Assembly: GCF_000020385.1 (NCBI RefSeq)
Contig: NC_010814.1
Location: forward strand, 990,001-1,022,000
DNA from: Trichlorobacter lovleyi SZ
Lineage (GTDB): Bacteria > Desulfobacterota > Desulfuromonadia > Geobacterales > Pseudopelobacteraceae
Direction of reading: 5' to 3'
DNA: 32,000 nt
This document shows positions 2,031 to 25,434 of the stretch, piece after piece. How positions within the stretch are numbered: position 1 is the stretch's first letter; each line of letters opens with the position of its first letter. A program made the translations under genes and the position numbers. A model generated the notes under the pieces. It was not told the DNA's origin, made no database searches, and was given only the letters and a program-made list of their open reading frames with translations.

Positions 2031-2071
2031 GCATGGCGGCATGCTTTACTAACTACAGGGGAGGTCATGGT

Positions 2072-3316: not shown

Positions 3317-3428
3317 CAGAACAAAAAACAGTGGCATTCAATTTTTTGAATGTGCTAATGTAGCAACTCTTTATGACAGCCACCCGTTTGGGGGCTGATC
3401 AGTAGCTGTAGTACCATAGAAAGACATA

Positions 3429-3549
3429 CCGCCCGGATTTGTTGTTCTGTACAAACCGGGACGGACGGAACATGGAACCTGCCGTTGCACCTGATGCAGC
3501 CGGTTTGTGGTAACAGGCACACCGTCCCGTGGTGTGCCTGTTTTATTTT
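3429..3549 (+). promoter_or_regulatory. Structured 5' leader of the panBC operon (candidate pan-motif-like element or attenuator)
   Basis: Hairpin CCG-CCCGG-A-TTTGT (3429-3442) pairs with ACAAA-CCGGG-A-CGG (3451-3464), leaving two unpaired A residues. The 3' arm ACAAACCGG can alternatively pair with CCGGTTTGT (3500-3508). The element ends in a strong terminator (3512-3549) only 11 nt before the panB ATG. Confidence 0.5.
3512..3549 (+). terminator. Rho-independent terminator immediately upstream of panB
   Basis: Perfect 12-bp stem AACAGGCACACC (3512-3523) / GGTGTGCCTGTT (3531-3542), followed by TTTTATTTT. Confidence 0.8.
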
Positions 3550-6914: not shown

Positions 6915-7067
6915 GTAATCCGTGGTACTCTTGATGCTGCGGGGAGAAGGTTCTGCAGAGTCCCCCGGTGACTCTCGTCTGAATTGTGTGCTGGATTGAA
7001 ACCACCTGAATTGCCGCAAAGGAACCGGTCATGCAACTGTTCAAGGCTCAGGATAACGAGGCGATCT

Positions 7068-10000: not shown

Positions 10001-10805
10001 ACGTTACGGGCAGTTGCGCGGTATGCGGGTTTTGCTGGTTGAGGATAACGACATGAATCAACAGGTGGCCTGTGAGCTGCTGACATCAGCAGGCATCGAG
10101 GTCACGGTGGCGGATAATGGCCATACGGCTGTGGAGCTGGCGGCTCAGCACCGCTTTGATACCGTACTGATGGATATTCAGATGCCGGTCATGGACGGCT
10201 ATGAAGCCAGCCGTTTGATCCGTGCCGATCAGGCTTGCCGTGATCTGCCGATCATTGCCATGACGGCCCATGCCATGCCCCAGGATCGGCAGCGTTGCCT
10301 GGAAAGCGGGATGAACGATTACGTCAGTAAACCGATCAACCCCCAGGAACTGTATAGCACTCTGGAGCGATGGGGGAGGGCGGCTTCCGGCATCCCTGAT
10401 CAATCGCGGGCGGCTTCGCTGTCCAACGCTGACAGGGAGGCGCTGTTGCCGGATAGCCTGCCCGGCATAGCAATGGAAATCGGGCTGCAGTGCATGAACG
10501 GTAAAAAGTCATTCTACCGCTCGATGCTGTTGCAATTCCTGACGAGTAAGGCCGGTAGTGCCAGAGAGCTGCAGGAACTGCTGGCAGCCGGAGACAGACA
10601 GGCGGCTGCCCGGGGTGCCCATTCCATGAAGTCGGTCGCAGGGATGATCGGCGCCCTGGAACTGATGGCGGCAGCTCAAAAGCTGGAACAGGGACTGGAT
10701 TCAGGTGCTCAGGATGCTGACCAGTTGCTTGAACGGTTTGAGAAAGAATTGTCCGTTGTTATTGATGGTCTTGCATCGGCTTTCAGTGACAGTCCGGCCG
10801 GTTGA
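7068..10805 (+). CDS. Soluble hybrid sensor histidine kinase (about 4 PAS - HisKA - HATPase_c - REC - REC - HPt)
   Basis: Start placed at ATG 7068 (GAGG 6 nt upstream); the ORF opens at TTG 6984. Repeated PAS-like segments lie between coiled-coil linkers. H-box [12 protein letters not shown]-box [11 protein letters not shown]-boxes DNGIGM / GGTGLGL. REC1 has [14 protein letters not shown] and REC2 has [14 protein letters not shown]...SKPI. HPt has [13 protein letters not shown]. No hydrophobic TM segment was seen. Confidence 0.9.
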
Positions 10806-12345: not shown

Positions 12346-12645
12346 TCAGCAGCCTGCTGATTTTGTGAATTTTGCGCTGATATTTTTGCCGCTGTTCTCT
12401 TCAAATTTTACCTTTACATCATCGTCAATCGTAATTTTCTTGCTGCTGAGCTTGTCCTTGGTCAGATCATCGGCTATTTCGATCACAAACTCTTTGCCGC
12501 TTGCCTCGTCTTTCACAACAGTCGTAAAGCTGCCGTCAGCATTAGGGGTGATTTTTCGTACCGGCCCCTTGATGCTTGCGGCAAAGGAAAACGATGCGAT
12601 AGCGAGTACCGTAACGGCAGCGACAACGGATGACAGTTTTTTCAT
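12346..12645 (-). CDS. Small secreted protein, unknown function
   Basis: 99 aa. MKKLSSVVAAVTVLAIASFSFAAS is a signal peptide. AAAGGA lies upstream. The mature part is Lys/Asp-rich and ends ...KSAGC. This is preferred over the antisense low-complexity ORF 12248..12757. Confidence 0.6.
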   Translation of the reverse strand: MKKLSSVVAAVTVLAIASFSFAASIKGPVRKITPNADGSFTTVVKDEASGKEFVIEIADDLTKDKLSSKKITIDDDVKVKFEENSGKNISAKFTKSAGC

Positions 12646-12765: not shown

Positions 12766-13668
12766 TTACGCCACCTGGTCCCTGCCGCTCTGTTTTGCCT
12801 GATACAGCGCTTGATCGGCATGTGCAAGCAGTTCCTCAACGGAGCAGACGTCATTGTCCGGATATGCTGCAACACCGATGCTGACCGTTATCTTCAGGTC
12901 GGGGGAGATGTGGGAAAAAGCAATTGCGCGAACTTTTTGGCACAGCCGATGGGCCACCTTTAAGGCCTCACGCTTGCTGGTGTCGGGCAGCATCACCACA
13001 AACTCCTCACCGCCATATCGGAAAAAGAGGTCGTAGTCCCGTAAGCAGGCCGTGGCCTCTGCCGTCACTTTTTTGAGCGCCAAATCACCTGCCTGATGAC
13101 CAAATCTGTCGTTGATTTCTTTAAAGTGGTCAATATCAAGCATCAGCACCGACACCATGCCGTCGGTGCGTGCCGCCCGGCCCAGCTCAACATTGAGGAT
13201 GTGGCAGAGGTAGCGCCGGTTAAAGGCACCGGTCAGCGCATCCTTATGTGAAAGCAGTTCAAGTTCCTTGTTCCGTTTGCGGAGCTCCTCTTCACGACGT
13301 TTTGCGTTCAGGTGCAGTTTTGCCCGAGCTACAAGTTCCTGCGGATCATAGGGGATATGAATAAAATCGTGCGCTCCTGTTGTCAGGCCCTTCAGTCGGA
13401 TGTCGCGACTGGTATTGCTGGTCAGCAGCAGTACCGGAATGTGCTCTGTCTCGGTTCTTGAGCGGATTGCAGTCAAAAACTTAAGGCCGTCCATGCGTGG
13501 CATTTCAATATCACACAGGATGACGTCGGGGGCGTTCTGCGAGGCCTTTTGAAAACCATCCAGGCCGTCTACTGCCTCGAACACGGCATCCTTAAATCCG
13601 TTTTGCTTAAGGTCAGCCACTATTTTACGACGGGTTTCGCGGTTGTCTTCAACGACTAGAATGCTCAT
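12766..13668 (-). CDS. Response regulator with GGDEF output (PleD/WspR-like diguanylate cyclase)
   Basis: REC domain: ILVVEDN...DVILCDIEMPRMDG...LLLTS. A coiled-coil linker follows. The GGDEF domain has an intact GGEEF and an RxxD I-site (RDYD) 5 residues upstream. The ATG overlaps the stop of the upstream transglycosylase gene (ATGA, 13665-13668). Confidence 0.9.
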   Translation of the reverse strand: MSILVVEDNRETRRKIVADLKQNGFKDAVFEAVDGLDGFQKASQNAPDVILCDIEMPRMDGLKFLTAIRSRTETEHIPVLLLTSNTSRDIRLKGLTTGAHDFIHIPYDPQELVARAKLHLNAKRREEELRKRNKELELLSHKDALTGAFNRRYLCHILNVELGRAARTDGMVSVLMLDIDHFKEINDRFGHQAGDLALKKVTAEATACLRDYDLFFRYGGEEFVVMLPDTSKREALKVAHRLCQKVRAIAFSHISPDLKITVSIGVAAYPDNDVCSVEELLAHADQALYQAKQSGRDQVA

Positions 13669-14126
13669 CGTGCACCATCCTGGGTCAGTGATGCCTGCAT
13701 GCTGTGGTTTGCCAATTGTGCTGCAATGCGTTGGGCATAACGTTCATTTTTGCCCGGTGTTCTGCTGTTGTAACAGCCTACTGCCTTCCAGCCATAGCCG
13801 TAGTCATTGATGCACTGGCGCAGGATCCAGGCACCAACCTTGAGATTTGTGCAAGGATCACCCAGTTGTGACCACAGTTCAGGCCCCAGCCGTTTTGCCC
13901 AGCTTGAGTTGATTTGCATCAGGCCAAAGTCGTAACTGCCGTTCAGATTCCGGTTGATCGCATCAGGCTTCAGGTTGCTTTCCTGTCTGGCAATGCTTAA
14001 CAAGAGGGTTGGCGGCAGATTGTAGATCCTGCCTGCTTCTTCAAAGCAGAAGCCATACCCCATGGCGGGATTAAGGCATATCGCGATGCAGGACAGGATC
14101 GTTGCCAGTTTGCAGGTGCCCTTCAT
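13665..14126 (-). CDS. Specialised lytic transglycosylase (SLT domain; BfpH / R64 PilT / VirB1-like)
   Basis: Start placed at ATG 14126, 1 nt after the secretin stop (TAAtATG). MKGTCKLATILSCIAICLNPAMG is a signal sequence. SIARQESNLKPDAINRN...YDFGLMQINSSW is the SLT catalytic-Glu motif. Confidence 0.85.
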   Translation of the reverse strand: MKGTCKLATILSCIAICLNPAMGYGFCFEEAGRIYNLPPTLLLSIARQESNLKPDAINRNLNGSYDFGLMQINSSWAKRLGPELWSQLGDPCTNLKVGAWILRQCINDYGYGWKAVGCYNSRTPGKNERYAQRIAAQLANHSMQASLTQDGAR

Positions 14127-14127
14127 A

Positions 14128-15660
14128 TTAGCCCTCAGGAATAAATTCAATAATGGTTGGTTTGACAACGATAACCAACTCTTCCTTTTCTTTTTTTCCG
14201 GTAACATTCTTGGTCAGGTAGGTGTCTCCGGGCAGTCCGTTGACGTTGTCATCGTTCATCTCATAGACCAGCCCGCCGATGATGGCCACCTGCTCCGGTT
14301 TCATGCGCAGGAAGGTCTCGACGGACTTTTTAGTGGTTTCCGGTTGCATGAAGCTGCCCAACTGGGAACCGGCCGAGATGGTCACGTAGCGATTAACCCC
14401 CTCGACATTTACCTTCAGATTTATGGTCAGCATCTGCTGTTTTTTGTTGTAATAGGGGGTGAAATCCATGATCACCCCGGCCTTGGCAGTAGATGTCTTG
14501 GCTGTTGCCGCAGTGGCGCCACTGGTGCTGGAAAGGGAAGAAATGCCAATTTCGGAGACGTAGGGAGATTCGGTGACAATCTCAATCTTTCCTTTCTTGC
14601 CGCTCATGGTCTCGACAAAGACGTTCTGCATCACATTGTACTTGCCAAAGTTTTCCATGAAGCTGAACAGAGCCGAGAGTGAGAATCGGGACGACTCCAT
14701 GAATAGATTGGCCCCGCTTGTGTTGAACAGGGCACCGATACCCTGTTCAAATAAGTTGGTAGCGGGAGTTGTTGTTGTCGTTGTACCGGTGGTGGTTCCG
14801 GTTGACGAAGAACTGTCGTCAAGCTTTGCCAGTTTTTTAAAGCCAAGATTCTGGATATTTTGGGACTGCCAGCCAACCGCCATCTGCGACCAGTCAATCC
14901 CCAGGCTGTTGCCGTTGTTCAACCGCACATTCATTAATACGATCCGCATGGTGACCAGTGAGACGTTGTTCTTTAGGTTGTCCAGATATTCTTTCATGCG
15001 CTGGTATCCGGCATAATCTGCACGAAATGACATCGACGATGAAAGATCGTCGTAACCGACGCCTTCGGCCCCCAGCTTGACCATATTGCCTTCGACCGTC
15101 TTCAGAAGATCGGGGTAGTTGGGGACCAGCACGCTGAACGTTTCTCGCTCTTTCATGACAATGGCGCCGTTTTCAAAGGTAAAGAAGTAACCGGTTGAAT
15201 CAGAGAGGGTCTTAAACAGGTCAGACAACCTGCCGTTAAAAGAGACCGATACCATTCTTGAACGGGCAGATCCCTGTATTGCCGCTGGCTGCTGCCCCTG
15301 CTGTAAAGCCGTTTGGCTGTAGGCCGGTGCAAAGCTGTTTTTGTCAGGCATGTCATAGACAATGTTCAGGCCGGTGCTGGCAGCTAGTGCCTTCATAAAG
15401 TCGCGGATCTCAACGTTGTGCATGCTGATGGAGACATAGCGGTCATTGCTGAACGGCTTGGTCTCATGGACCTGAAAGGCGTTCTTCGGAATTGTCAGCC
15501 TGACGATTGAAGGTTCGGCGGGCAGCATGCTTTCCGCTTTTTTGGCAAGCTCATGCTGGGTAGGCAGGTCATCCTTGCGTATCTGCTGGATGGATGAGCA
15601 GCCGCCAAGCAGCAGCGTGCTGAAAAGTGCTACACAGAGCATGGTTCTGATCCGTATCAT
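14128..15660 (-). CDS. Outer-membrane secretin, lipoprotein type (T4bP PilN/BfpB-like)
   Basis: MIRIRTMLCVALFSTLLLGGCSS has a lipobox (LLGGC). An N-terminal secretin-N-like module has VSISMHNVEIRDFMKALAASTGLNIVYD. There is a Ser/Thr-rich linker SSSSTGTTTGTTTTTTP. The C-terminal secretin domain ends ...VAIIGGLVYEMNDDNVNGLPGDTYLTKNV...EELVIVVKPTII. Confidence 0.85.
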   Translation of the reverse strand: MIRIRTMLCVALFSTLLLGGCSSIQQIRKDDLPTQHELAKKAESMLPAEPSIVRLTIPKNAFQVHETKPFSNDRYVSISMHNVEIRDFMKALAASTGLNIVYDMPDKNSFAPAYSQTALQQGQQPAAIQGSARSRMVSVSFNGRLSDLFKTLSDSTGYFFTFENGAIVMKERETFSVLVPNYPDLLKTVEGNMVKLGAEGVGYDDLSSSMSFRADYAGYQRMKEYLDNLKNNVSLVTMRIVLMNVRLNNGNSLGIDWSQMAVGWQSQNIQNLGFKKLAKLDDSSSSTGTTTGTTTTTTPATNLFEQGIGALFNTSGANLFMESSRFSLSALFSFMENFGKYNVMQNVFVETMSGKKGKIEIVTESPYVSEIGISSLSSTSGATAATAKTSTAKAGVIMDFTPYYNKKQQMLTINLKVNVEGVNRYVTISAGSQLGSFMQPETTKKSVETFLRMKPEQVAIIGGLVYEMNDDNVNGLPGDTYLTKNVTGKKEKEELVIVVKPTIIEFIPEG

Positions 15661-16523
15661 TTATTCCTCCGGTTAATCGTATCAGCAGCGGGAGCAGCAG
15701 GGTCTGCGGGGGGGGGAGGCTCCGTCGCAGGTGTCGTTTCTTTCAGGTTCAGTAGAATAGTGGTGCCACCATCTGTACCCTTGAATATATGTCCTTCAGC
15801 GCCCGGCAGTCTGTATGCTGCCCCTTTTTGCTGTTGCAGCAGTGCAATAGTGGTAAGTAGAAAGGCGGTGTCGTCTTTATATTTTGTGTTTTCAGCCCGT
15901 GCCTTCAGGAGCTGCTCCTGTAACGTCGTACGTTCAGTTTCCAGCTGTTCCAGGGTCTGTTTCTGGTTGTTCAGTTCCTGTCTGACTTGGGTCAGTTCTG
16001 CTTCTTTGCCCTGCAAGGTGAGACTGCTGCGGGCGATCTCTGATTTGAGAGTGTCATCCAGCTGAATGCATTTTTGTGCAATACTCTGGGCTGAAAAGAT
16101 CAAGTCATCTAGACGGCGCGCAGGATCAACCGTGCGGGGTTCTACCCTGGTAGACCGTTTTTTTTCAGTAGCGTCCTTGCCACAGTGTACGCCGTCAAAG
16201 CTGGCAACACAGCCGCCTGCCAGGCTTTCGCCTTCAGCCAATGATAGGATCTCGCCGGTTTGGGTGTCAGTCACGATTACCCGGTTATCGATCTTTCCGG
16301 TAAACTCCCAGCGCTTCTTGTGTGGCAGTATCGTATTGCCCGGGTGGGCACCAGGAAGTGGTGGCAATGGTACCGTCGGCAATTGAGGTTTTGGTGCTCC
16401 CGTCGTTACCGGCTTGGTTTCATTTTTCTGGGGTGTGTTGCCTTCAACAAAAGGGCTGGCAGCTGCAATCTGAGCTGCCAGCGCTGTTGTGATCAGGCCT
16501 ACCGTAACAATCCTGATAAACAT
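15657..16523 (-). CDS. Secreted Pro-rich / coiled-coil protein with a possible GspC/PilP-type HR (secretin-docking) domain
   Basis: Start placed at ATG 16523 (GGAG 5 nt upstream). Signal peptide MFIRIVTVGLITTALAAQIAAASP. FTGKIDNRVIVTDTQTGEILSLAEGESLAGGCVASFDGVHC resembles the HR-domain pattern. A long heptad-like Q/E/L stretch (LTQVRQELNNQKQTLEQLETERTTLQEQLLKARAE) is present. The stop overlaps the secretin ATG (ATGA, 15657-15660). Confidence 0.55.
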   Translation of the reverse strand: MFIRIVTVGLITTALAAQIAAASPFVEGNTPQKNETKPVTTGAPKPQLPTVPLPPLPGAHPGNTILPHKKRWEFTGKIDNRVIVTDTQTGEILSLAEGESLAGGCVASFDGVHCGKDATEKKRSTRVEPRTVDPARRLDDLIFSAQSIAQKCIQLDDTLKSEIARSSLTLQGKEAELTQVRQELNNQKQTLEQLETERTTLQEQLLKARAENTKYKDDTAFLLTTIALLQQQKGAAYRLPGAEGHIFKGTDGGTTILLNLKETTPATEPPPPADPAAPAADTINRRNK

Positions 16524-16536
16524 GCTCACTCCGGGG

Positions 16537-18075
16537 TTAGTTGAATTTTGTCAGGGATTTTGTGCCAGATGATGTTTCAATCATAATACCGGCTGCATTT
16601 GGATCATCCTTTTCCACCAGTGGCAGGCTGTAGGTAACGCCGTTTTTGCGTATCCGCACCGGAGAGCTAGAGTAGCCCACAGGCTCGGCGGCAATACTGA
16701 CAGTACCGCTTGCCGTTTTTTGACGAATGCCGCTATCCAGCAGCGGTCCGTAAGGGATTGGGGCTACGGAAAGCTTGGCGATATAGTCACCGGTAAAGGA
16801 GTTGTCTGAGCCGATAATTCCGATGCCACCCCACTTGTCCAGCACCATGTACGGAAACTTTCCCTTGGCAACCTTGGCCAGGCCGCTGTCGGCAAAGCTG
16901 CTGTCAGGTACACCGGTGGTCTTGTTGATACGGCTTAAGGTTGCAGAGCTGCTGCTGGAAAGTGGAATGATAAAAAACGAGCTTGTGGAGGTGCCGTTGT
17001 TGAGCAGGTACAGGGTGTTTTCTGATACCCTCAGGGTCAGATTTTCAACTGATTGAAAAAACATCGACAAAAACGGAATTTTGACTGTACCCCCCCCCTG
17101 GCCCCAGCCGGTTATCAAGTTGCCGCTGTTAGCGTCGTACTTTCTGACAAAGTTGTCAGAGACATTAAAGATAATGAAGTCCTGGGTGTTGGCTCCTGCC
17201 AGGTAGATGCCGCTGTTGTCAATGGCGAGGGAGGTGGCCTTTTCCTTCTGGAAGAGGGGGTTGGTATAGGTCTGTGCCCACTGTTCGGCGCCGGTTATGG
17301 CATCCACCTTGGTGATCCGGTATTTTTGGTCAGTCAGGCTCTTAATGTTGATGGCGGTATAGAGGTAGCCGTTGAAGATGGCAGCATCGCCAAAGCCGAT
17401 GGTGGTTAACCACTGTTTGTCAATGGCAGCAGTATAGGAGCCCAGCACCGACCCGTCGGCATAGGAAAGTCGTTTGGCAAAGCAGGCTGAGTAGATGCCG
17501 TCTATTCCGCTGGTGATCAGCAGCAGGCCGTTGTTGCCAGGCAGTGGAAGCAGCTTTTGGAACGAGATGGTGCCGATGGTGAAGGTGGCAACCAGGCTGC
17601 CGCTGGCTGCGTTTCGTTTCTGGATGCGGTAGGTGATATCGTGGTGATCGTAGTAGAGGATGTACAGGTGACCGTCGCCACCCAGTACCAGGGCCTTGGG
17701 GTCGTGGTTGTGCCAGGAGTTGACATCGGACAGGGTGCCGTTTGTGCCGAACTCAGGTACCAGGGTGCCGGTTTTCCAGTCCCGTTTTTGCAGTAGCAGA
17801 TCCCGCTCGTAAATGGCGGCAATGCTGGACGGCTTGGTCTTGTGCAACGAGTACAGGTAGGCCGGTGTGGTGGTGGTAGCCTCCTGCAGGGCCAGCATTG
17901 GCGATTCTGGATAGGCGGCAGGTGCCACCACCGGAATGGGAGAGCCCGGAGACCAGGCCTGCCAGGCCGGTTGTCCGGCAGGCAACCCTTGCCAATAGGG
18001 ACCGTCAGCCTGGGCAGGTAGGCTGCACAGACAGCAGAGTAGCAGGGTTGCAAGGCATGTGATGATAAATTTCAT
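16537..18075 (-). CDS. Secreted repeat protein, probably beta-propeller (possible PilY1-type tip adhesin analogue or cargo)
   Basis: 512 aa. Signal peptide MKFIITCLATLLLCCLCSLPAQA. The repeat pattern '...Y(L/I)xG....(F/Y)x(I/V)xK(L/V)xaxxGxLxxx(F/W)G' recurs (YRIQKRNAASGSLVATF; YRITKVDAITGAEQWAQ; FVRKYDANSGNLITGWG; LSRINKTTGVPDSSFADSG). This is reminiscent of delta-60/SBBP-type propeller blades. GGAGAGAG SD. Confidence 0.6.
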   Translation of the reverse strand: MKFIITCLATLLLCCLCSLPAQADGPYWQGLPAGQPAWQAWSPGSPIPVVAPAAYPESPMLALQEATTTTPAYLYSLHKTKPSSIAAIYERDLLLQKRDWKTGTLVPEFGTNGTLSDVNSWHNHDPKALVLGGDGHLYILYYDHHDITYRIQKRNAASGSLVATFTIGTISFQKLLPLPGNNGLLLITSGIDGIYSACFAKRLSYADGSVLGSYTAAIDKQWLTTIGFGDAAIFNGYLYTAINIKSLTDQKYRITKVDAITGAEQWAQTYTNPLFQKEKATSLAIDNSGIYLAGANTQDFIIFNVSDNFVRKYDANSGNLITGWGQGGGTVKIPFLSMFFQSVENLTLRVSENTLYLLNNGTSTSSFFIIPLSSSSSATLSRINKTTGVPDSSFADSGLAKVAKGKFPYMVLDKWGGIGIIGSDNSFTGDYIAKLSVAPIPYGPLLDSGIRQKTASGTVSIAAEPVGYSSSPVRIRKNGVTYSLPLVEKDDPNAAGIMIETSSGTKSLTKFN

Positions 18076-18090
18076 TGCGCTCTCTCCGCC

Positions 18091-18891
18091 TTATTGCAGT
18101 AGCCAGATCTGGCCGTTAATCGGGTTTTGGGGGTCAACGGTGGTGGTCTGGATCACCAAGCCGTCGGTGGCCTTCAGGACTCCTCCCTGAACATCCATTT
18201 TGACCGTTGGTGTTGTGGGAGGGGTCGCCGGAGATTCACCAACCACCACGGTATCAGCCTTCGTAATCAGCTTGATCTTGTTCGTTGTCTCTGTGCCGGT
18301 TGGTGCTTCCCGCCGCCAGCCCGGTACTTGGCCAATTTCGGCCTGGGTGAATTCAACAAATATATCGTCACCTCTCGCTGTGGTTGCGTTGCAGGGCGTT
18401 TCTCCTGTGATACCGTTAAAAATGCCGTCAGGGCCGACTGAAACGATCCGGCCGGTTAGCAGCGAGGTGTTCAGATTGTTATAGCTGTCAGGCGGTGCAA
18501 TGTTGTTGTTTGAAAAATGGATGGTGTCGGTACTGTTTTGTGTCCCCAGATCCCAGGCGCAGTAGCTGTAGTCATGTCCCCAGGCATCCTTTGCATTGTA
18601 CGATCCAGCCGGCAGCGTATTGCCGGTGCCGACAGCGGGTGGCTCGTATTTGCCGTCATCATCAATATCCCTGGATTGATTCATCAGAAAGTTTTTGATC
18701 TCTTTCATCTTCAGTACGGTATCAGCCGAGTTGTAGTAGCGGGCATGACTGGCCTGGCTGGTGTTAAGCGAGAGCAGCAGCAGGATGATAAGCGGGATAA
18801 GTGCCGTCAAAGCCACCAGGCTGAGGAGCGCAATCCCCTTGTTGTTGTTCACGCCGTTGCTGCGGGTCTGTCTGGTCATGGATGCAGCCAT
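18091..18891 (-). CDS. Large pilin-like (pseudopilin/minor-pilin-like) protein lacking Glu5, with a DxDxDG Ca-binding-type motif
   Basis: The N-terminus ...NNNKG/IALLSLVALTALIPLIILLLLSL is a class III signal-like segment with Ser at +5 instead of Glu, as in GspK-type minor pseudopilins. DIDDDG at 18652-18669. The start is ambiguous: ATG 18891, or ATG 18879 which sits 12 nt from GAGAGG. Confidence 0.5.
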   Translation of the reverse strand: MAASMTRQTRSNGVNNNKGIALLSLVALTALIPLIILLLLSLNTSQASHARYYNSADTVLKMKEIKNFLMNQSRDIDDDGKYEPPAVGTGNTLPAGSYNAKDAWGHDYSYCAWDLGTQNSTDTIHFSNNNIAPPDSYNNLNTSLLTGRIVSVGPDGIFNGITGETPCNATTARGDDIFVEFTQAEIGQVPGWRREAPTGTETTNKIKLITKADTVVVGESPATPPTTPTVKMDVQGGVLKATDGLVIQTTTVDPQNPINGQIWLLQ

Positions 18892-18899
18892 CCTCTCTG

Positions 18900-19337
18900 T
18901 CAAACGCCCTTCAGGGTGATGGTCAGGTTGAAGCCTTCCGGTCCGCACCCTGTTCCGATGCAGAGGCTCTCATACTCCATCCGGTACGGTAGGGCAGAAA
19001 GGGTGTTGATAAAGCCATAGATATTGCTGTCATGGCCTAGCACCTGATCCGTTTTTATCCTGGTCAGATCGGGTTTTGCCATCAGGCTTGGCCCCTTCAG
19101 GGAGACCTCGAGAGGCAACTCGTACTGGCGTCCAATAGCCTGGGTAAGGTTACGCAGGCTCAGCATCCGGGCATCATCAGGCGGTACCAGGCTGTTCATC
19201 TGCTGCTGTACCTGGGTCTTGACCACATCCTTCCAGGTTTTCTGCACATCCTGGCGCACCTTGATCCCCTTTGCCAGTACCGTTATGCTAGCGAGCAGCA
19301 GAAAGAGCGGTAGTATATATAACCTTATCGCCTTCAT
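18900..19337 (-). CDS. Small N-terminally anchored periplasmic protein (GspM/PilO-like topology)
   Basis: Start placed at ATG 19337 (GGAGGA 4 nt upstream). MKAIRLYILPLFLLLASITVLAKG is followed by a soluble domain of about 120 aa. The assignment rests on size, topology and position only. Confidence 0.45.
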   Translation of the reverse strand: MKAIRLYILPLFLLLASITVLAKGIKVRQDVQKTWKDVVKTQVQQQMNSLVPPDDARMLSLRNLTQAIGRQYELPLEVSLKGPSLMAKPDLTRIKTDQVLGHDSNIYGFINTLSALPYRMEYESLCIGTGCGPEGFNLTITLKGV

Positions 19338-20151
19338 AGTTTCCTCCGGTGGTTCGTAAAAAGACCTGCGCATCAGCATCCTGGTTGAATTTAATGGTGC
19401 AGGTAAGCTGGTCTTTTGCTAATGCGACCTTTACGATGAATCCCTTGCCTTCGATCTTTTTTCCCAGATCAGCCACCGAATTTATGAAGGATGGCAGTCC
19501 GCGTGGTATGACCGGTGCAACCTGTGCTACCAGGCGTTGCTGCTCTTTGCGGGCCGTGTCATATCCCTTTGCCGAGAGGGCCAGGAACAGGGTGGAAAGT
19601 CCCAAAAAAGCCAGTAGGGCAGCGTTAAGAAACAGGTTCTTTCTGGCGAGGGACCAGGTCAGCTTCAGGGTTGCCGGCGGGCTGTTGACCGGTACCTGCT
19701 GTATCATCAGGTGGTTCGGGCGTTCTTCGTAGGCAACCTCGGCTGAGCAGAACCCGTCCTTGTTGGTGAGGTAGTAGAAGTAATCAGCATCCGTCTTTTT
19801 ATAGACAAAGTTGCCCTGCAGTATCAGCGCAGGATAGAACAGCGGCAGCCTGCCAGCGACATGCTGCTTGCTCTTCAGTGCGATAAAAGAAAGGATGCCG
19901 TTCAGGTACTGATAGCTGTAGTAAAAATCGTCACCCAGCAGCGGGATAGCCTTGCCGTTGATGTAGGACAGAATCTCTTTCTGTTCGATTCCCACGCTGT
20001 CCATGACAAATTCATCACTGAATACCAGGCGTGAGGTGTCGACTAAAACCGGTGGTGGATCTGACACGGGCTTTGTTTTTACTTTCCTGATTACCGGCCG
20101 CTCGTCTGGTGCAAGATCAGGCTGTGAGTCCAGCGCTGCATCGTTAGCCAT
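19288..20151 (-). CDS. Bitopic inner-membrane assembly protein (GspL/BfpC-like topology)
   Basis: Start placed at ATG 20151 (GGAGGA upstream; it overlaps the platform gene stop by 8 nt). A cytoplasmic domain of about 165 aa, a single TM segment LFLNAALLAFLGLSTLFLALSA, and a periplasmic domain of about 95 aa. The 3' end overlaps the next gene by 50 nt. The assignment rests on topology and position only. Confidence 0.45.
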   Translation of the reverse strand: MANDAALDSQPDLAPDERPVIRKVKTKPVSDPPPVLVDTSRLVFSDEFVMDSVGIEQKEILSYINGKAIPLLGDDFYYSYQYLNGILSFIALKSKQHVAGRLPLFYPALILQGNFVYKKTDADYFYYLTNKDGFCSAEVAYEERPNHLMIQQVPVNSPPATLKLTWSLARKNLFLNAALLAFLGLSTLFLALSAKGYDTARKEQQRLVAQVAPVIPRGLPSFINSVADLGKKIEGKGFIVKVALAKDQLTCTIKFNQDADAQVFLRTTGGNYEGDKVIYTTALSAAR

Positions 20152-21307
20152 GCAGTCCTCCAAGTAGTTTGCTGTACGGGATCATGATGCCCATCACCAT
20201 CAGAAGAAAGATGCCACCGGCAAAGATCAGGGCAAAGGCATAGACCCTGGGCCCCAGCGCCTTGACCTTTTCCATGTAGCCACGGTAAAAACGGTCGGCC
20301 ACCAAGGACAGGTTTTCTGTGACTCGGTTTGAGTTCTGGGCAACATCCAGCATGGTTTTCTCAATTGGGTTTAAGCAGGTAAAGCCGTAGGAGAAGCTTT
20401 CTCCCTCCTTTACCTTTTTAATGGCATTGTCAAATTCTGTGCGAATGGCGATGGTTCGCGAGGTGTCCTGCACGATTTCTAGGGCCGGGGATAACTGAAT
20501 TCCGGTCTCCATCAGTTTTGCCATGGAAAAGAAGGCCACATAAAAACCTTGATAGAAAAACAGCTCCCGAATCAGCGGGACAGAGAGCAGTAATTTTTCC
20601 ATCTCTTGCTGGCGGCTTTTGTAGAGCACTGCCACAACCACCGTCACAATCGCCAAGGCGGCAAAAACTGCCGGCACAATATGCGAAAGGGCCGACAAGG
20701 CCTGGATGAAAAAGTTGGTCTGCCCCTTCAGGGCGGTCTTGAACAGTTGCGAGGCCAGTATCTTGGGGATCACCACCTGAGTGTTTACCACCAGGGCAAT
20801 CACCGATACGATAAAGATCACCAGCGGGTAGGAGAGCGTTTTTTTCATCTCGCTCTGGCTCGCTTCAATGTTGGTGATGTACTGCGCCGCCCCCAGCAGG
20901 CTTTCTGCCAGCCGTCCCGACTTCTCTCCGGCCTGGATCATGGAGATGGTGGTGCTGCCAAAGACCGAGTGGTAGGCGGTCATGGCGGATGAGAGCTCGC
21001 GGCCCTGTTGTACGGCGGTCTTGATGGCGTTTAAGATTGTGATCAGTGAGGAAGCACGGGGTAGTGACTGGATGGTGGTTTCCAGCGTCTTAGAGAGCGG
21101 TACGCCTGCCTGCAGCAGATCCCCGATCGCCACCAGCACCGCTGCCAGTTCTTTGCGTTTGGCCTTGGGCTGAAACAGGGTGAGCGGCTTTTTGATGGAA
21201 AGCACTACCTTGCCTTCGCTGATCAGCCGTTCTCTGATCTCGGCGGCTGAACCGATGAATTCCGCCTCTTTGCGGACCCCTTTGTCAAAGTAGGTGACCT
21301 GATGCAT
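20144..21307 (-). CDS. Type IV pilus / T2SS inner-membrane platform protein (GspF/PilC family)
   Basis: 387 aa. Length and hydrophobic-segment layout fit two tandem T2SSF-type modules. The gene starts 2 nt after the ATPase stop. Confidence 0.9.
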   Translation of the reverse strand: MHQVTYFDKGVRKEAEFIGSAAEIRERLISEGKVVLSIKKPLTLFQPKAKRKELAAVLVAIGDLLQAGVPLSKTLETTIQSLPRASSLITILNAIKTAVQQGRELSSAMTAYHSVFGSTTISMIQAGEKSGRLAESLLGAAQYITNIEASQSEMKKTLSYPLVIFIVSVIALVVNTQVVIPKILASQLFKTALKGQTNFFIQALSALSHIVPAVFAALAIVTVVVAVLYKSRQQEMEKLLLSVPLIRELFFYQGFYVAFFSMAKLMETGIQLSPALEIVQDTSRTIAIRTEFDNAIKKVKEGESFSYGFTCLNPIEKTMLDVAQNSNRVTENLSLVADRFYRGYMEKVKALGPRVYAFALIFAGGIFLLMVMGIMIPYSKLLGGLHG

Positions 21308-21309
21308 GG

Positions 21310-22896
21310 CTAATCCATGATCTCCATGGCATCGTTACAGTCGGTCTGCTGACGGCAGGAAGCACACCAGGCGCCACCCAGGCGAATTCCCAATACCCGC
21401 TGGATCTCGGCGCAGTCGGTTGTCCGGTTTGTCAGTTTGGTGCGGGCATCGTCAATAAAACGTTGATAGGGCAGGTCATCTTCCCCTTTGTGATCAATCA
21501 GGCGGTAGATATCTTTGGGGCTGTTCAGGCGGGCAAACTCGGTCAGGAGCGTCCTGCCCTTGTAGCCGGTCTGTTTGCACTCCTCACAACCGGCTCCCTC
21601 ACACTGGGCGCACAGTTTGCGGGCCAGTTTCTGCACCAGTATCCCCCGCAGCGCATAGGAGAGTTTGGGGATCTCTGCCCCCAGGTCTTTTAGCCGCAGA
21701 ATGGTGGAGGGGATGTCGTTGGTATGCAGGGTGGCATAGACCAGGTGGCCGGTATCGGCCAGCCAGAGGGCGTTCTCTGCGGTCTCGCTGTCCCGTACCT
21801 CGCCAACAACCACCACATCAGGGTCATGGCGCAGCACGGTCCTGCCAAAGGCGGCAAAATCAAGGTTGATGCGGCGATTCACCTGCACCTGGGTCACAAA
21901 CGGCACCCGGTATTCAACCGGATCTTCCACAAAGTAGACTGCCTTTTCCAGCAGGTTCAAGTGCCGTACCGTCGAATAAAGCGTGGTGGTCTTGCCGGAG
22001 CCGGTGGCACCGCAGACCAGGATCAGGCCGGTAGTCAGCCTGGCCAGTTCAAGCCAGTCGTTGATGGCGCTGATGCCGATTTCCTGCACCCCGATCATCA
22101 TCTTTTCCTTGTCCAGGATCCGGATGGTCGCCTTTTCGCCGTAGGTGGATGGGATGGTTGAAACCCGGAAGTCGACATTGCGACCACGGTAGTTCATGGA
22201 AAAGGAGCCGTCCTGGGGCACCATCTTGTCGGATACGTTCATGCCGGACATGTCCTTGATCCGGGAGAAGATCTTGTTGGACAGGCTGTCCGGCAGGGCC
22301 TTGACCATATGCAGGATACCATCGATTCGGCAACGGACATGCAAAGATTTCTCCGATGTCTCCAGATGGATGTCGGAGGCGCCATCCTCCAGGGCATCAT
22401 GGATGATGGCGGTGAGTTGTTTGTTGATGTCGGTGTCGTCCTGACCCCGTCTGGTGGCATGCATCGAACGTTCCAGGGTGGCCAGATGTTCGGTAATGAT
22501 GGTGTGGCGGATCGGGACCAGGGTTAGGGTCATCGAGAGGTCAAGCAGCTTGCCGATCGCCTCCAGCACCTCACGGGGGTGAGGGTGCAGGGTCGCCAGG
22601 TACAGGGTGTTGCCGGTATCCCCCAGGATCATGCACTTGTATTTCAGGAGTAGTTCAGGCGGCAGCTCAACCTGTACCGAGGTCTCGCCGATCAGCGACT
22701 CCGGGTTTAAGTGGGCCAATGCCTCAACCAGGTGGCTGCGCTCAAAAAAACCGAACCGGATCAGGATTTCTCCCAGCTTTTCGCCGGTGATGGCCTGTTC
22801 CTGCAGGGCGACGTCAAGCTTCTGTTGGTTGATCAGTCCCTGCTCCCGCAGGTACTCGCCGACACGGGTTCGTGTATAGGGCGTGGTGGTCTGCAT
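21310..22896 (-). CDS. Type IV filament assembly ATPase (GspE/PilB family) with an MshEN-type N-terminal domain
   Basis: Start placed at ATG 22896, 2 nt after the pilin stop; the longer listed ORF overlaps the pilin gene. Walker A GATGSGKTTT, Walker B/Asp box DPDVVVVGEVRD, His box TGHLVYATLHTND, tetracysteine CAQCEGAGCEECKQTGYKGR. The N-terminus has RVGEYLREQGLINQQKLDVALQEQ-AITGE-KLGEILIRFGFFERSHLVEALAHL. Confidence 0.92.
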   Translation of the reverse strand: MQTTTPYTRTRVGEYLREQGLINQQKLDVALQEQAITGEKLGEILIRFGFFERSHLVEALAHLNPESLIGETSVQVELPPELLLKYKCMILGDTGNTLYLATLHPHPREVLEAIGKLLDLSMTLTLVPIRHTIITEHLATLERSMHATRRGQDDTDINKQLTAIIHDALEDGASDIHLETSEKSLHVRCRIDGILHMVKALPDSLSNKIFSRIKDMSGMNVSDKMVPQDGSFSMNYRGRNVDFRVSTIPSTYGEKATIRILDKEKMMIGVQEIGISAINDWLELARLTTGLILVCGATGSGKTTTLYSTVRHLNLLEKAVYFVEDPVEYRVPFVTQVQVNRRINLDFAAFGRTVLRHDPDVVVVGEVRDSETAENALWLADTGHLVYATLHTNDIPSTILRLKDLGAEIPKLSYALRGILVQKLARKLCAQCEGAGCEECKQTGYKGRTLLTEFARLNSPKDIYRLIDHKGEDDLPYQRFIDDARTKLTNRTTDCAEIQRVLGIRLGGAWCASCRQQTDCNDAMEIMD

Positions 22897-22898
22897 CG

Positions 22899-23405
22899 CT
22901 AGCTGACGCGGCTGATCCAGTAGGTGAATGACACGGTACCGGATGTCGGCATGGAATCTGTGGTGGAACCGCAACTGGCGTTGGTGATAACCTTCATGGA
23001 AGAGGTCTTCTTCTTCAGTTCGCTTGCGGCGGCGGCAATGGCGTCGCTATAGGCGGCCTGGGCACAGACATAGTTGCCGTTGGCGCTGGCGCCCAGCAGG
23101 TAACCGTCAACCCAGCCGGCAGTGGTTGGCCGCTCAAATCCGCTGTCTGCCTTGGGTGGAAAGAGGTAGACCGGAACAAAGGTGCTGTCAGTCAGACCGA
23201 CAGGGACTGCATTTTTTTCATGCTTGAAGTTGTTGAAGGCCATCTCGATGTTTGAAAAGTCATTCAAAAGCTTCATTGAGGCGCTTTCTGCCTGGCGATT
23301 GCCGCTACCGGCCCCTAGGATCCCCACCATCAGAGCAATGACAGCACTCAGCATGATCATCACCACCAGTACCTCAAGCATGGTAAAACCGCTTCTGTTA
23401 CGCAT
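22899..23405 (-). CDS. Type IV prepilin-like protein (second pilin, short leader)
   Basis: MRNRSG/FTMLEVLVVMIMLSAVIALMVGILG is a class III signal with Gly-1, Phe+1 and Glu+5. Start placed at ATG 23405 because GGAG sits 6 nt upstream. The upstream ATG 23417 has no SD and abuts a 12-bp hairpin. There are two Cys residues in the C-terminal part. Confidence 0.8.
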   Translation of the reverse strand: MRNRSGFTMLEVLVVMIMLSAVIALMVGILGAGSGNRQAESASMKLLNDFSNIEMAFNNFKHEKNAVPVGLTDSTFVPVYLFPPKADSGFERPTTAGWVDGYLLGASANGNYVCAQAAYSDAIAAAASELKKKTSSMKVITNASCGSTTDSMPTSGTVSFTYWISRVS

Positions 23406-23419
23406 TGTCTTCTCCATAG

Positions 23420-23479: not shown

Positions 23480-24028
23480 TTATTGAACAAAGACCGGAAT
23501 TACCGCGGTGTACGGATCCGCTGAACCGTAGCACTGGATATTTTTAGTACCTGAAACGGATGCGGGGATGGTGCCTGTTGTGTCACCATAGGCCGCCTTG
23601 TTGATCGCCTTGCAGATGTCTGTGTTGATGCCGGCAAGGGTGACTACCGTGTCAGTGCCCGTTGAACCGAATGCAGTCACGCCGGTTGTGGTCCAGTTGT
23701 AGGCGTTGGATATCGGCGAGGGAGCGGTAGGGGAGACTTTCAGATAGCCTTTTTCCACCAGGCAGGTTGCTGTGCCTGAAATACCGGTTGGGGTGGCTGC
23801 CTCTTTGGCCTTGTATGATTGTGCTGCCCCTTCAATGGAACGCAGGTCATCAATCACCCGGGTGGCGGCGCTGTCAACGCTGGCGTTGGCAAAGGGGTTG
23901 CCGAAGATCCCCACCATTAAGGCAACGGCCAGGCCGATCAGGACCAGCACGATCAACATCTCTACCAGGGTAAAGCCCTTTTGATTCCGTAATCCTGAAG
24001 CCTTCTGCTTTTTCATTGTGGTGCTCAT
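23480..24028 (-). CDS. Type IV prepilin (likely major subunit), long leader peptide
   Basis: Start placed at ATG 24028 (AAGGAG 10 nt upstream). MSTTMKKQKASGLRNQKG/FTLVEMLIVLVLIGLAVALMVGIFG is an 18-aa leader, followed by a mature protein of about 164 aa with 3 Cys (TATC, DIC, IQC), consistent with a C-terminal disulfide loop. The upstream 69 codons of the listed ORF are rejected. Confidence 0.85.
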   Translation of the reverse strand: MSTTMKKQKASGLRNQKGFTLVEMLIVLVLIGLAVALMVGIFGNPFANASVDSAATRVIDDLRSIEGAAQSYKAKEAATPTGISGTATCLVEKGYLKVSPTAPSPISNAYNWTTTGVTAFGSTGTDTVVTLAGINTDICKAINKAAYGDTTGTIPASVSGTKNIQCYGSADPYTAVIPVFVQ

Positions 24029-24095: not shown

Positions 24096-24353
24096 CTACA
24101 CTGCAATACTGGTGACCCAGGCCATGATCTCCTGGCGTGAGAGGAAGAGCGGTGATCTGCCCTGGGGCAGTCTTGCGATGACCTCACCGGCAAAACGGCG
24201 ATGCAGGGTAAGCGCCTGCTGGTTAGGGATGACATCCAGCAGCAGTGCCAGGGCCAGTTGTTCTGTGTTGTGATGTGTATAGCACGGGGTCATCGGGGGA
24301 TTTGTGCTGCTATGATGGCAGGCGCTGTCTGTATACCATGGTGTTTCGCGCAT
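24096..24353 (-). CDS. Small hypothetical protein, first gene of the pilus operon
   Basis: 85 aa. ATG 24353 is preceded by AGGAGA at 9-nt spacing. The C-terminal part (GEVIARLPQGRSPLFLSRQEIMAWV) faintly resembles excisionase/AlpA-type winged-helix proteins. No confident family. Confidence 0.45.
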   Translation of the reverse strand: MRETPWYTDSACHHSSTNPPMTPCYTHHNTEQLALALLLDVIPNQQALTLHRRFAGEVIARLPQGRSPLFLSRQEIMAWVTSIAV

Positions 24354-24430
24354 AAAACCGTGTCTCCTGGCTGATAATGAGGTGTTTGTGCTTCAATATA
24401 GTGCATTTAAATATATGTCGATATCCAATA

Positions 24431-24495
24431 TTGATATAATTTGTGTGCATTGTTACCGAAATTGATAGCTTGATATAGTATAGTTATTATATCAA
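24431..24495. promoter_or_regulatory. Operator-like TTGATATA repeats in the divergent control region
   Basis: TTGATATA at 24431-24438 and at 24470-24477. TTGATAgc at 24462-24469. Inverted copy TATATCAA at 24488-24495, giving a perfect 8-bp inverted repeat with a 10-bp spacer. Imperfect palindrome ATATCCAATATTGATAT at 24421-24437. A further TTGAT overlaps the -35 at 24516-24520. Confidence 0.4.
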
Positions 24496-24519
24496 GTCAA
24501 CTTCTAAAATGGGCATTGA

Positions 24520-24548
24520 TTGACCTGAGGTGCAAAAAAAGCTATATT
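24520..24548 (+). promoter_or_regulatory. Sigma70-type promoter for the CI-like regulator
   Basis: TTGACC (24520-24525), a 17-nt spacer, then TATATT (24543-24548). AAAGGAGG SD at 24567-24574 and ATG at 24580. Confidence 0.5.
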
Positions 24549-24579
24549 GTTTCTTCAGGGAAAAGCAAAGGAGGTGACT

Positions 24580-25434
24580 ATGACAGCAAAAAGCACTAAA
24601 ATAGTTGAACTTTTTGATGGCGCTGCTGCTCATGAACCCCATGAGGACGCTGCGATAGCCGTGTCCAAAAGTGATGAGGAAGTTGCCTTAAGCACGCGTC
24701 AGGTGCTGGCACGGATCAAGGAACAGCTGGGGCTTGATACGGATATTGAGCTGGCAGAGGCGATGGGAATCGGTATCAGGCGAATTCATAACTGGAAACA
24801 CCGCAACACGGTGCCGACCGAAGAGATCGTGGCTATCTGTGGTAAGGAAGGGCTTGATTTGCAATATATTCTGACTGGCCCGGGGCCACTGCAGGGGGGG
24901 GGGGCTATGCAAGCTGGAGCAAAAAAAGGGGCGGTACATTGCAACTTTGATCCGGAGCAGGCGAACAAGCCGCGCGACACCTATACCCCTTCACAGTGCG
25001 GTCATCCTCGGATACATCCGCCCTACAAGGCCTACACCCAACGCTCGGAAAAAGGCGAAGTGCTTTCCTCGTTTTCCTCACCCCAGATTGTGGATGTGCT
25101 GGCGCCTGGTCTCAATTGGCTGAATCATTCGCTGGGGATTGCGCCGGAGCATTTTCTGCTGGTTAAGGCGTTAGGGGATAATATGGCCCCTTGGCTGCAG
25201 GATGGTGATTTGATTATGGTTGATACCAGCATAAAAACCACCACAGCCGGTGGATGCTTGCTGTTGCGTTACCCTGATGGGGTTTTGATGGTGCGACGGG
25301 TGTTCAGAAGTCCGGAGGGTAGGCTGATGGTGAGGGATGACAATGAGTGCTCGCCGCCTGATGCCATAGATCCCAATGATAACTCAACCTATCCGATTGT
25401 GGTGGGCAGGGTGGTGAGACGCCTGGTACGTTGA
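24580..25434 (+). CDS. Phage CI / LexA-like regulator (N-terminal CI-type HTH plus S24-peptidase-like C-domain with substituted catalytic dyad)
   Basis: Start placed at ATG 24580. HTH: LAEAMGIGIRRIHNWKHRNTVPTEEIVAICGKEGLDLQYILTG. C-domain: LVKALGDNMAPWLQDGDLIMVD...GVLMVRRVF...IVVGRVVRRL. This aligns with LexA VSGMSMKDIGIMDGDLLAV...EVTVKRLK, with Asn at the Ser position and Arg at the Lys position. Confidence 0.85.
   Translation: MTAKSTKIVELFDGAAAHEPHEDAAIAVSKSDEEVALSTRQVLARIKEQLGLDTDIELAEAMGIGIRRIHNWKHRNTVPTEEIVAICGKEGLDLQYILTGPGPLQGGGAMQAGAKKGAVHCNFDPEQANKPRDTYTPSQCGHPRIHPPYKAYTQRSEKGEVLSSFSSPQIVDVLAPGLNWLNHSLGIAPEHFLLVKALGDNMAPWLQDGDLIMVDTSIKTTTAGGCLLLRYPDGVLMVRRVFRSPEGRLMVRDDNECSPPDAIDPNDNSTYPIVVGRVVRRLVR
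24894..24904 (+). repeat. G11 homopolymer inside the regulator CDS
   Basis: ctg caG GGG GGG GGG Gct encodes LQGGGA in the linker between the HTH and the S24-like domain. This is the longest mononucleotide run I found in the window. Confidence 0.95.

Follow-up and report, generated by a model that had tools for sequence, protein, structure and literature searches.

A GGDEF Cyclase Gene in a Predicted Type IV Filament Operon with an MshEN-Type Assembly ATPase in Trichlorobacter lovleyi SZ

We analyzed a 32,000-nucleotide (nt) stretch of the Trichlorobacter lovleyi SZ genome (NC_010814.1, positions 990,001 to 1,022,000), hereafter the window, in which a single predicted operon encodes the components of a type IV filament machine and a REC-GGDEF diguanylate cyclase. 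The assembly ATPase of this machine carries an N-terminal domain of the MshEN type with a motif for the binding of c-di-GMP (cyclic diguanosine monophosphate). Among related genomes, the cyclase and the filament cluster are also found one without the other, in both directions. Our preferred reading, held with moderate confidence, is that local c-di-GMP signaling is plausible here and of a known kind, and that the coupling of the cyclase to the ATPase is opportunistic and recent and does not represent a co-evolved, dedicated circuit.

The Cyclase Gene Ends a Run of Filament Genes

The window ORFs (open reading frames), together with Pfam and NCBIfam searches, define 13 tightly packed minus-strand genes extending from approximately position 24353 to position 12766 (table 1). 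When likely starts are used, the gene junctions range from −4 to +67 nt, all on one strand. The ATPase gene starts with an ATG at 22896, 2 nt past the stop of a pilin-like gene, and the start of the REC-GGDEF gene overlaps the stop of the preceding lytic transglycosylase (SLT) gene as ATGA, in agreement with the translational coupling proposed in a first-pass annotation of this DNA. Judged from these junctions, the gene spacing is operon-like throughout. Given the predicted co-transcription and the ATGA coupling to the last gene of the machine, the cyclase would be made together with the ATPase whenever the operon is on. The first-pass annotation had also described the cyclase gene as the last of the operon. 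It does end the 13-gene run, but an ORF of 99 codons located downstream on the same strand may be part of the same transcription unit. No family was found for this ORF in a Pfam search; a 76% identical counterpart is present 3′ of the REC-GGDEF gene in Trichlorobacter thiogenes (L090, 11014-11313).

According to its gene content, the region is predicted to be a type IV filament gene cluster, for a pilus or a pseudopilus, of an unclassified clade. The ATPase scores 349 with the PilB equivalog model (cut-off 676) and 339 with that of GspE (cut-off 630), and the best NCBIfam match of the secretin is MshL, with 88 bits, far below the cut-off of 250. Because both proteins are this far under the PilB, GspE, and MshL cut-offs, the machine appears to be of the type IV filament kind and to represent a clade that has not been assigned.

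We compared this arrangement with a background set of 80 metagenome PilB/GspE loci totaling 879 kb, with up to 10 kb of flanking sequence on each side. These loci were obtained from a metagenome scan with the clade alignment, using generic Walker-type patterns, and at 31-44% identity they are not orthologs. A GGDEF gene was found within the operon in none of the 80 loci and anywhere in the flanks in a single one. In-operon GGDEF genes are thus uncommon near PilB/GspE genes, and the linkage of the cyclase to the ATPase is probably still meaningful, in a weak sense.

The Cyclase and the Filament Cluster Are Separable

Approximately 55 proteins, with 40-88% identity, make up the clade of the ATPase, and the closest named member comes from Trichlorobacter sp. 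In the cluster of L002 and L003, 84% identical to that of the window, a REC-GGDEF gene likewise follows the SLT gene after a 24-nt gap, and its product is 62% identical to the window cyclase. Three other clusters, with ATPases 71-86% identical to that of the window, end at the SLT gene and have no cyclase gene. One of them, L088 (86%), occupies the same chromosomal site as the window cluster, which speaks against a dedicated linkage. The second, on the P0004 contig (84%), is located at a different site with a CI gene attached, and the third is L004 (71%). Conversely, four loci encode the cyclase in the absence of any pilus gene: L090 (T. thiogenes, 70% identity), L091 (T. lovleyi, 60%), L092, and L093. 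These loci share the site of the window, defined by mreB, GT2, SIS, and hldE genes and by amidohydrolase and panCB genes. In each of them the REC-GGDEF gene stands beside a CI-like repressor gene, and all but L092 also have a DUF6166 gene.

In total, seven genomes could be compared at this site: two have both the pilus cluster and the cyclase, one the pilus cluster only, and four the cyclase only. Elsewhere, five loci (the P0004 contig, L004, L006, L007, and L089) carry the pilus cluster without any GGDEF gene. As cyclase-only and pilus-only loci both exist, the cyclase and the pilus machine are separable in both directions and are not consistently inherited together. In genomes without the pilus, the cyclase evidently serves some role. 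A scan of genome contigs with the ATPase retrieved only one short contig of a metagenome-assembled genome, with no gene context. In L005, a distant member of the clade, genes for a REC-HD-GYP protein (a predicted c-di-GMP phosphodiesterase) and for a separate GGDEF protein are found on the same strand 3′ of the secretin gene (18917-20848). This GGDEF protein is unrelated to the window cyclase and represents a second, independent link between the pilus clade and enzymes of c-di-GMP turnover.

The flanks of the window are closest to those of the T. lovleyi relative, with MreB 100%, HldE 96%, the hybrid kinase 90%, and the amidohydrolase 87% identical, while identity is no more than 60-68% for the island genes that the two share (CI, DUF6166, and REC-GGDEF). 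The window CI protein is closest to that of L088 (88%), though the HldE of L088 is itself only 88% identical. Two groups of CI alleles are present in the genus, and neither follows the relationships of the flanking genes; the three pilus-bearing loci at the site fall into one allele group, and the CI alleles do not track HldE. The island genes have a G+C content of 0.50-0.58, as against 0.59-0.61 for the flanks. Genes for methyl-accepting chemotaxis proteins, toxin-antitoxin systems, and histidine kinases are variably present at the site. Since cyclase-only and pilus-only genomes occur at this same site, the pilus cluster is nested in a variable, horizontally exchanged Trichlorobacter island, between the DUF6166 and REC-GGDEF genes. 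More distant clusters, with ATPases 53-56% identical to that of the window, adjoin genes for F-type conjugation proteins TraN, TraU, and TrbC in L006 (1-4608), genes for TraL, TraE, and TraK in L089 (14521-15730), and a Rep3 plasmid replication gene in L007 (5407-6606), which suggests frequent carriage of this filament machine on mobile elements. According to the identity matrices, the distances between REC-GGDEF proteins are star-like (56-70%) and do not separate insertion of the pilus cluster from its deletion. If the pilus-less loci were deletions, the linkage of cyclase and pilus could be ancestral, which would weigh against the recent coupling that we prefer.

These data leave some room for a different explanation, one that we consider possible if rather doubtful, in which the cyclase and the ATPase are uncoupled neighbors. 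The cyclase would be part of a CI/DUF6166 unit and would act through other receptors, the pilus would have landed in a recombination hot spot or been lost from it, and the ATPase would read the global c-di-GMP pool or nothing. The spacing of the DUF6166 and REC-GGDEF genes, direct neighbors 1-15 nt apart in three pilus-less genomes, fits this explanation, as do the variability of the site and the mobility of the cluster clade just described. It fits less well with the window itself, where the predicted co-transcription and translational coupling would lead to both proteins being made together. In addition, c-di-GMP is diffusible, and any active cyclase would reach a sub-micromolar MshEN receptor.

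An MshEN Domain at the N-Terminus of the Assembly ATPase

Positions 22708-22866 (minus strand) translate as RVGEYLREQGLINQQKLDVALQEQ-AITGE-KLGEILIRFGFFERSHLVEALAHL, that is, residues 11-63 of the ATPase, identical to the sequence given in the first-pass annotation. The first motif corresponds to residues 11-34, the spacer to residues 35-39, and the second motif to residues 40-63. In the published definition (Wang et al. 2016, PMC5013675), the MshEN motif makes up a domain of 53 residues, composed of two motifs of 24 residues with a spacer of 5, and the definition given in the annotation agrees with it. A hidden Markov model (HMM) search, which it had suggested, was positive twice over: the ATPase scores 52.6 bits with NCBIfam NF053729 ("c-di-GMP_motif, MshE-related"; curated cut-off 38, E = 3e-14), and the subdomain that follows the motif matches Pfam MshEN above its own cut-off (table 1). 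The agreement with the motif is thus well outside what chance would give. NF053729 also matches, at E ≤ 0.001, 44 of the 48 clade ATPases. The best PDB sequence match of residues 1-176 is 5HTL, Vibrio cholerae MshE with c-di-GMP, which aligns motif for motif (E = 1e-9). In an AlphaFold2 (AF2) model of residues 1-156 (pLDDT 85.9), helices 12-18, 24-37, 41-47, and 53-63 precede an alpha/beta unit, with strands and helices across residues 80-153. The top 20 matches of a Foldseek search of the PDB with this model are all MshEN/GSPII domains, and 5HTL ranks first with a probability of 1.00; its template modeling score is only 0.37-0.40, reflecting a different relative orientation of the subdomains. 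The HMM scores, the fold match, and the recurrence in 44 of 48 clade members together support the N-terminus of the ATPase as a genuine MshEN/GSPII domain with a c-di-GMP motif.

Several observations weigh against binding of the ligand. Even the relaxed motif of Wang et al. fails at two positions, motif 1 position 7, a hydrophobic core position that is Arg here, and motif 2 position 24, which is Leu. The latter corresponds to Gln61 of MshE, which forms hydrogen bonds with the ribose and the phosphate; this position is Ile or Leu in 33 of the 48 clade ATPases and Gln in none. The exceptions to the motif listed by the first-pass annotation are correct but incomplete, as motif 2 also departs from the strict motif by Phe at its positions 11 and 12, though the relaxed one allows both. 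XpsE, a non-binder of c-di-GMP, has Q61V among its changes. The GSPII-A domain of PilF fails to bind c-di-GMP even with the consensus restored (PMC12002112), and for this reason the motif alone is insufficient to infer binding by the ATPase. Conversely, the Gly at position 3 of each motif is kept in 43 of the 48 clade ATPases, and the clade also shows strong conservation of Leu at the contact positions 6, 17, and 21. Furthermore, MshEN variants with imperfect motifs were measured to bind at approximately 0.5 µM. On balance, c-di-GMP binding by the MshEN domain of the ATPase is probable, as judged from sequence and predicted fold.

A reading that we regard as unlikely is that the MshEN-like domain of the whole clade no longer binds c-di-GMP and has become a protein-docking domain, as in XpsE, in Xanthomonas citri PilB, which binds PilZ, and in PilF GSPII-A. 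It would explain why the second Gln is lost throughout the clade and why core position 7 is Arg; the fold matches include non-binders at similar scores, and non-binders that match the motif have been published. The reading is difficult to reconcile with an HMM score well over the curated cut-off, with conserved Gly and Leu residues that are consistent with purifying selection on ligand contacts, and with the sub-micromolar binding of the imperfect variants.

Both cyclase-bearing operons have Arg at position 1 of motif 1. Of the three close relatives that lack the cyclase and have a known context, two have Leu there, numbers too few to interpret; Leu is also found in P0007. The ATPase orthologs are 528 residues long. 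At its C-terminus (21310-21380), the window ATPase has an extra Cys-rich tail, GGAWCASCRQQTDCND; this tail lies beyond the usual CxxC...CxxC motif and is poorly conserved across the clade.

A Cyclase Predicted to Be Competent, with an Atypical Receiver

The REC-GGDEF protein matches Pfam Response_reg (E = 4e-24) and GGDEF (E = 3e-47). As the first-pass annotation had reported, it contains an intact GGEEF signature (residues 219-223, 13000-13014) preceded by LFFRY and by an RxxD I-site (RDYD, residues 210-213, 13030-13041). The I-site lies at the canonical distance, five residues 5′ of GGEEF, and is kept in the listed orthologs. The protein aligns end to end with PleD, including the contacts to GTP of the N335/D344 type (INDRFGHQAGD versus NDTFGHDIGD in PleD) and the equivalents of K442 and R446, a Lys/Arg pair found in YQAKQSGR. 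With all catalytic and I-site residues present, the GGDEF domain is predicted to be catalytically competent and product-inhibited. We also considered a Geobacter-type Hypr GGDEF enzyme making cyclic GMP-AMP (cGAMP). Hallberg and co-workers are said to have found in 2016 that Asp versus Ser at the specificity position separates guanine-specific enzymes from the cGAMP-making Hypr enzymes. The residue equivalent to PleD D344 is Asp in the window protein; because this guanine-specifying position is Asp, a cGAMP enzyme is not expected, and this candidate was rejected.

The receiver keeps E7-D8, D53, T83, and F102, as aligned to the first receiver domain (D1) of PleD. In contrast to these, the conserved Lys that precedes the cis-Pro (CheY K109) is replaced by I105 (DFIHIP, residues 101-106, 13351-13368). 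Homologs with at least 54% identity were taken as Trichlorobacter orthologs. Ile occupies the Lys position in 27 of the 120 listed homologs, among them all 24 with at least 54% identity that have the region except P0145, which has Thr; Lys is found in 82 of the 120, and nearly all of the homologs with no more than 48% identity have it. The receiver therefore appears to be atypical in a clade-specific manner. The first-pass annotation had described the cyclase as phosphorylation-controlled. The phospho-acceptor D53 is present, but as the receiver and its orthologs are without the conserved Lys the claim is weakened, and both the phosphorylation control of the cyclase and its signal input are uncertain. 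This too counts against a phosphorylation-switched circuit.

A hybrid histidine kinase with four PAS, HisKA, HATPase, two REC, and Hpt domains is encoded at 6984-10805 (plus strand), two genes away from the cyclase gene and in convergent orientation to it. A T. lovleyi gene in the same position has 90% identity to the kinase gene. In L092, a gene for a dCache hybrid kinase is located directly 3′ of the cyclase gene. These hybrid kinases are possible phosphodonors.

The first-pass annotation had gone further and proposed a self-contained module, in which a cyclase that evolved in the pilus operon and is switched by phosphorylation would gate the ATPase locally. We find this quite improbable. 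It can draw on the ATGA overlap in the window, on L002 and L003, where the cyclase gene likewise follows the SLT gene, on the rarity of in-operon GGDEF genes in the background set, and on the independent c-di-GMP enzyme link in L005. There is also precedent for it, as specific cyclase-to-MshEN signaling from DgcJ to NfrB is proven, and in most pseudomonads the operon of nfrBA-ybcH continues with a GGDEF gene (PMC8669469). Against the proposal stand the orthologous cyclases present at the same site in four pilus-less genomes, the clusters with closely related ATPases that have no cyclase, and the change from Lys to Ile in the receiver here and in the orthologs.

A Divergent CI-Like Repressor

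A CI-like repressor gene adjoins the operon in every related locus at the hldE site and accompanies the pilus cluster to another site. From this divergent position, the repressor probably controls the whole unit. Its S24 domain is degenerate: in comparison with UmuD, the catalytic Ser is replaced by Asn (VKALGDNM versus VKASGDSM) and the catalytic Lys by Arg. With Asn and Arg in place of the Ser-Lys dyad, the protein is unlikely to cleave itself or, in consequence, to be under SOS control, and we rejected SOS induction through CI/S24 self-cleavage as a mode of regulation. The intergenic region (24354-24546) contains the inverted repeats CTTGATATAGTA/TATTATATCAAG at 24469-24496 and the repeats TTGATATAAT/ATTATATCAA at 24431-24440 and 24486-24495. 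The inverted repeats are candidate operators. An alignment of the region between the CI gene and the operon from seven loci revealed a common TTGAC only and no conserved operator. A scan of the window for consensus promoters and terminators gave counts not clearly different from those in shuffled sequence and is hence uninformative, and the window contains no riboswitch for c-di-GMP or cGAMP.

A more daring proposal, to which we attach little credence, is that the hldE-amidohydrolase island is a cassette exchanged within Trichlorobacter, in which a non-cleavable CI protein controls both the machine, a relative of those that adjoin conjugation genes, and the genes on either side of it, for DUF6166 and for a Lys-less, possibly phosphorylation-independent REC-GGDEF protein, making assembly independent of global c-di-GMP. 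If so, derepression would deliver the machine together with its activating ligand, as a feed-forward license, and the locus, in which an incoming pilus cluster captured a resident cyclase, would offer a snapshot of the origin of local second-messenger circuits.

Organization of the Locus

The features of the locus are listed in table 1. The DUF6166 gene is probably the first gene of the operon, 5′ of the pilin gene. Both prepilin-like genes encode G/FT(L/M)xE leaders. For the five genes between the platform protein and the secretin genes, nothing scored above cut-off in Pfam or NCBIfam, and a PDB sequence search with two of them (19288-20163 and 16537-18075) yielded no meaningful match. The product of 16537-18075 gives a weak beta-propeller signal and that of 15657-16529 only weak, sub-threshold matches to FapA and SMC. 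The order of these five genes is kept in L002 and L088, with 60-78% identity.

Table 1. Features of the Filament Operon and Adjacent Genes in the Window.
Feature	Position	Strand	Evidence and remarks
CI-like HTH repressor	24547-25434	+	Divergent from operon; likely start ATG 24580; Pfam Phage_CI_repr (E = 2e-12), Peptidase_S24 (E = 1e-7)
DUF6166 gene	24096-24353	-	Pfam PF19663, 35.6 bits (cut-off 27); ribosome-binding site AGGAGA before ATG
Major pilin candidate	23480-24028	-	Type IV prepilin leader ...NQKG/FTLVEMLIV; Pfam N_methyl (E = 2e-8); ribosome-binding site AAGGAGA
Second pilin-like protein	22899-23417	-	MRNRSG/FTMLEVLVV; Pfam N_methyl (E = 1.5e-5)
Assembly ATPase, GspE/PilB/MshE superfamily	21310-22896	-	528 residues; Walker A GATGSGKTT; CxxC...CxxC zinc motif; Pfam T2SSE (E = 4e-96)
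MshEN_N c-di-GMP-binding motif	22708-22866	-	ATPase residues 11-63 (24+5+24); NF053729
MshEN_C alpha/beta subdomain	22468-22677	-	ATPase residues 74-143; Pfam PF05157 MshEN, 25.8 bits (cut-off 23.1)
Inner-membrane platform protein, GspF/PilC type	20144-21307	-	Pfam T2SSF (E = 2e-30), two stretches
Five family-less conserved genes	15657-20163	-	19288-20163, 18900-19379, 18091-18948, 16537-18075, 15657-16529
Outer-membrane secretin	14128-15660	-	Lipoprotein-type signal LLLGGC; Pfam Secretin (E = 2e-16)
SLT-type lytic transglycosylase, IagB-like	13665-14207	-	Likely start near 14126; Pfam SLT (E = 1e-21); NF011856 IagB (E = 1e-29)
REC-GGDEF diguanylate cyclase	12766-13668	-	REC residues 3-116 (13321-13662); GGDEF residues 141-298 (12775-13248)
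99-residue ORF	12346-12645	-	Predicted signal peptide; 120 nt 3′ of REC-GGDEF gene, same strand; G+C content 0.46 (low)

Elsewhere in the window, the Rfam pan motif (RF01749) is found at 3374-3468 (plus strand) with 49.5 bits (gathering score 36.2), 5′ of panB-panC. The ORFs at 2033-3316 (plus strand) and 30298-31590 (minus strand), of 427 and 430 codons, respectively, match no Pfam family at E ≤ 0.01.

Comparison with Known Systems

To our knowledge, the V. cholerae msh operon contains no active cyclase gene. Over 10,000 proteins contain MshEN domains, including many ATPases of pilus or secretion systems, and in V. cholerae the binding of c-di-GMP to MshE promotes pilus extension (PMC7096442). 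V. cholerae MshE (5HTL) and the window ATPase have in common the 24+5+24 motif, the fold, and a GspE/PilB-type ATPase that follows (PMC5013675). The identity of the two N-domains is approximately 24%, and the window protein differs by a motif 2 without the terminal Gln and a motif 1 with Arg at the core. In contrast to the MSHA system, the window ATPase and secretin stand far under the PilB, GspE, and MshL cut-offs, and the window cluster includes five family-less proteins and an SLT protein.

The E. coli NfrB/DgcJ pair and the Pseudomonas nfr operons resemble the window in combining an MshEN effector with a cyclase, the cyclase gene of the pseudomonads being immediately downstream; unlike the filament ATPase, NfrB is an MshEN glycosyltransferase/exopolysaccharide synthase, and the architecture of the cyclase is different. 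Caulobacter PleD is the best structural relative of the REC-GGDEF protein (E = 3e-68), with which it shares GGEEF, the RxxD I-site, and the REC-GGDEF linker helix. PleD is a REC-REC-GGDEF protein, whereas the window cyclase has a single receiver, in which the phospho-acceptor Asp is kept and the conserved Lys is Ile. PilF of Thermus thermophilus is a pilus ATPase with domains of the MshEN/GSPII family, but in three tandem copies. GSPII-B and GSPII-C bind c-di-GMP, and GSPII-A, a non-binder despite its good motif, is a cautionary case. The control of MshE-type ATPases by c-di-GMP and the operon linkage of cyclases to MshEN proteins are thus both established. In the literature searched, we did not find a description of a filament machine with a co-transcribed cyclase gene. 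The novelty is modest and consists of an unclassified filament clade, a cyclase in its operon, a receiver without the Lys, and a cluster nested within a resident DUF6166/REC-GGDEF unit.

A Model for Opportunistic Coupling

According to the preferred reading, in which an opportunistic and recent coupling makes use of a known kind of local c-di-GMP signaling, lifting of the CI-like repressor would switch the operon on and the cyclase would be made together with the filament machine. The cyclase would then raise c-di-GMP to a level capped by its own I-site. From this step onward the model is more conjectural: c-di-GMP may bind the MshEN domain of the ATPase, and the bound domain may favor filament extension or assembly, by analogy with V. 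cholerae MshE. In cyclase-less operons, the ATPase keeps the MshEN motif and presumably reads the cellular c-di-GMP pool, and in pilus-less genomes the cyclase would serve other roles.

The gain is incremental, since the underlying biology is already established. Should the cyclase indeed supply the MshEN ATPase, the operon would provide a compact and genetically tractable case of local c-di-GMP signaling to a filament motor, for which the sister genomes, with only the cyclase or only the pilus at the same site, are natural controls. It would also represent a signaling pair built by the insertion or deletion of a gene cluster rather than by co-evolution.

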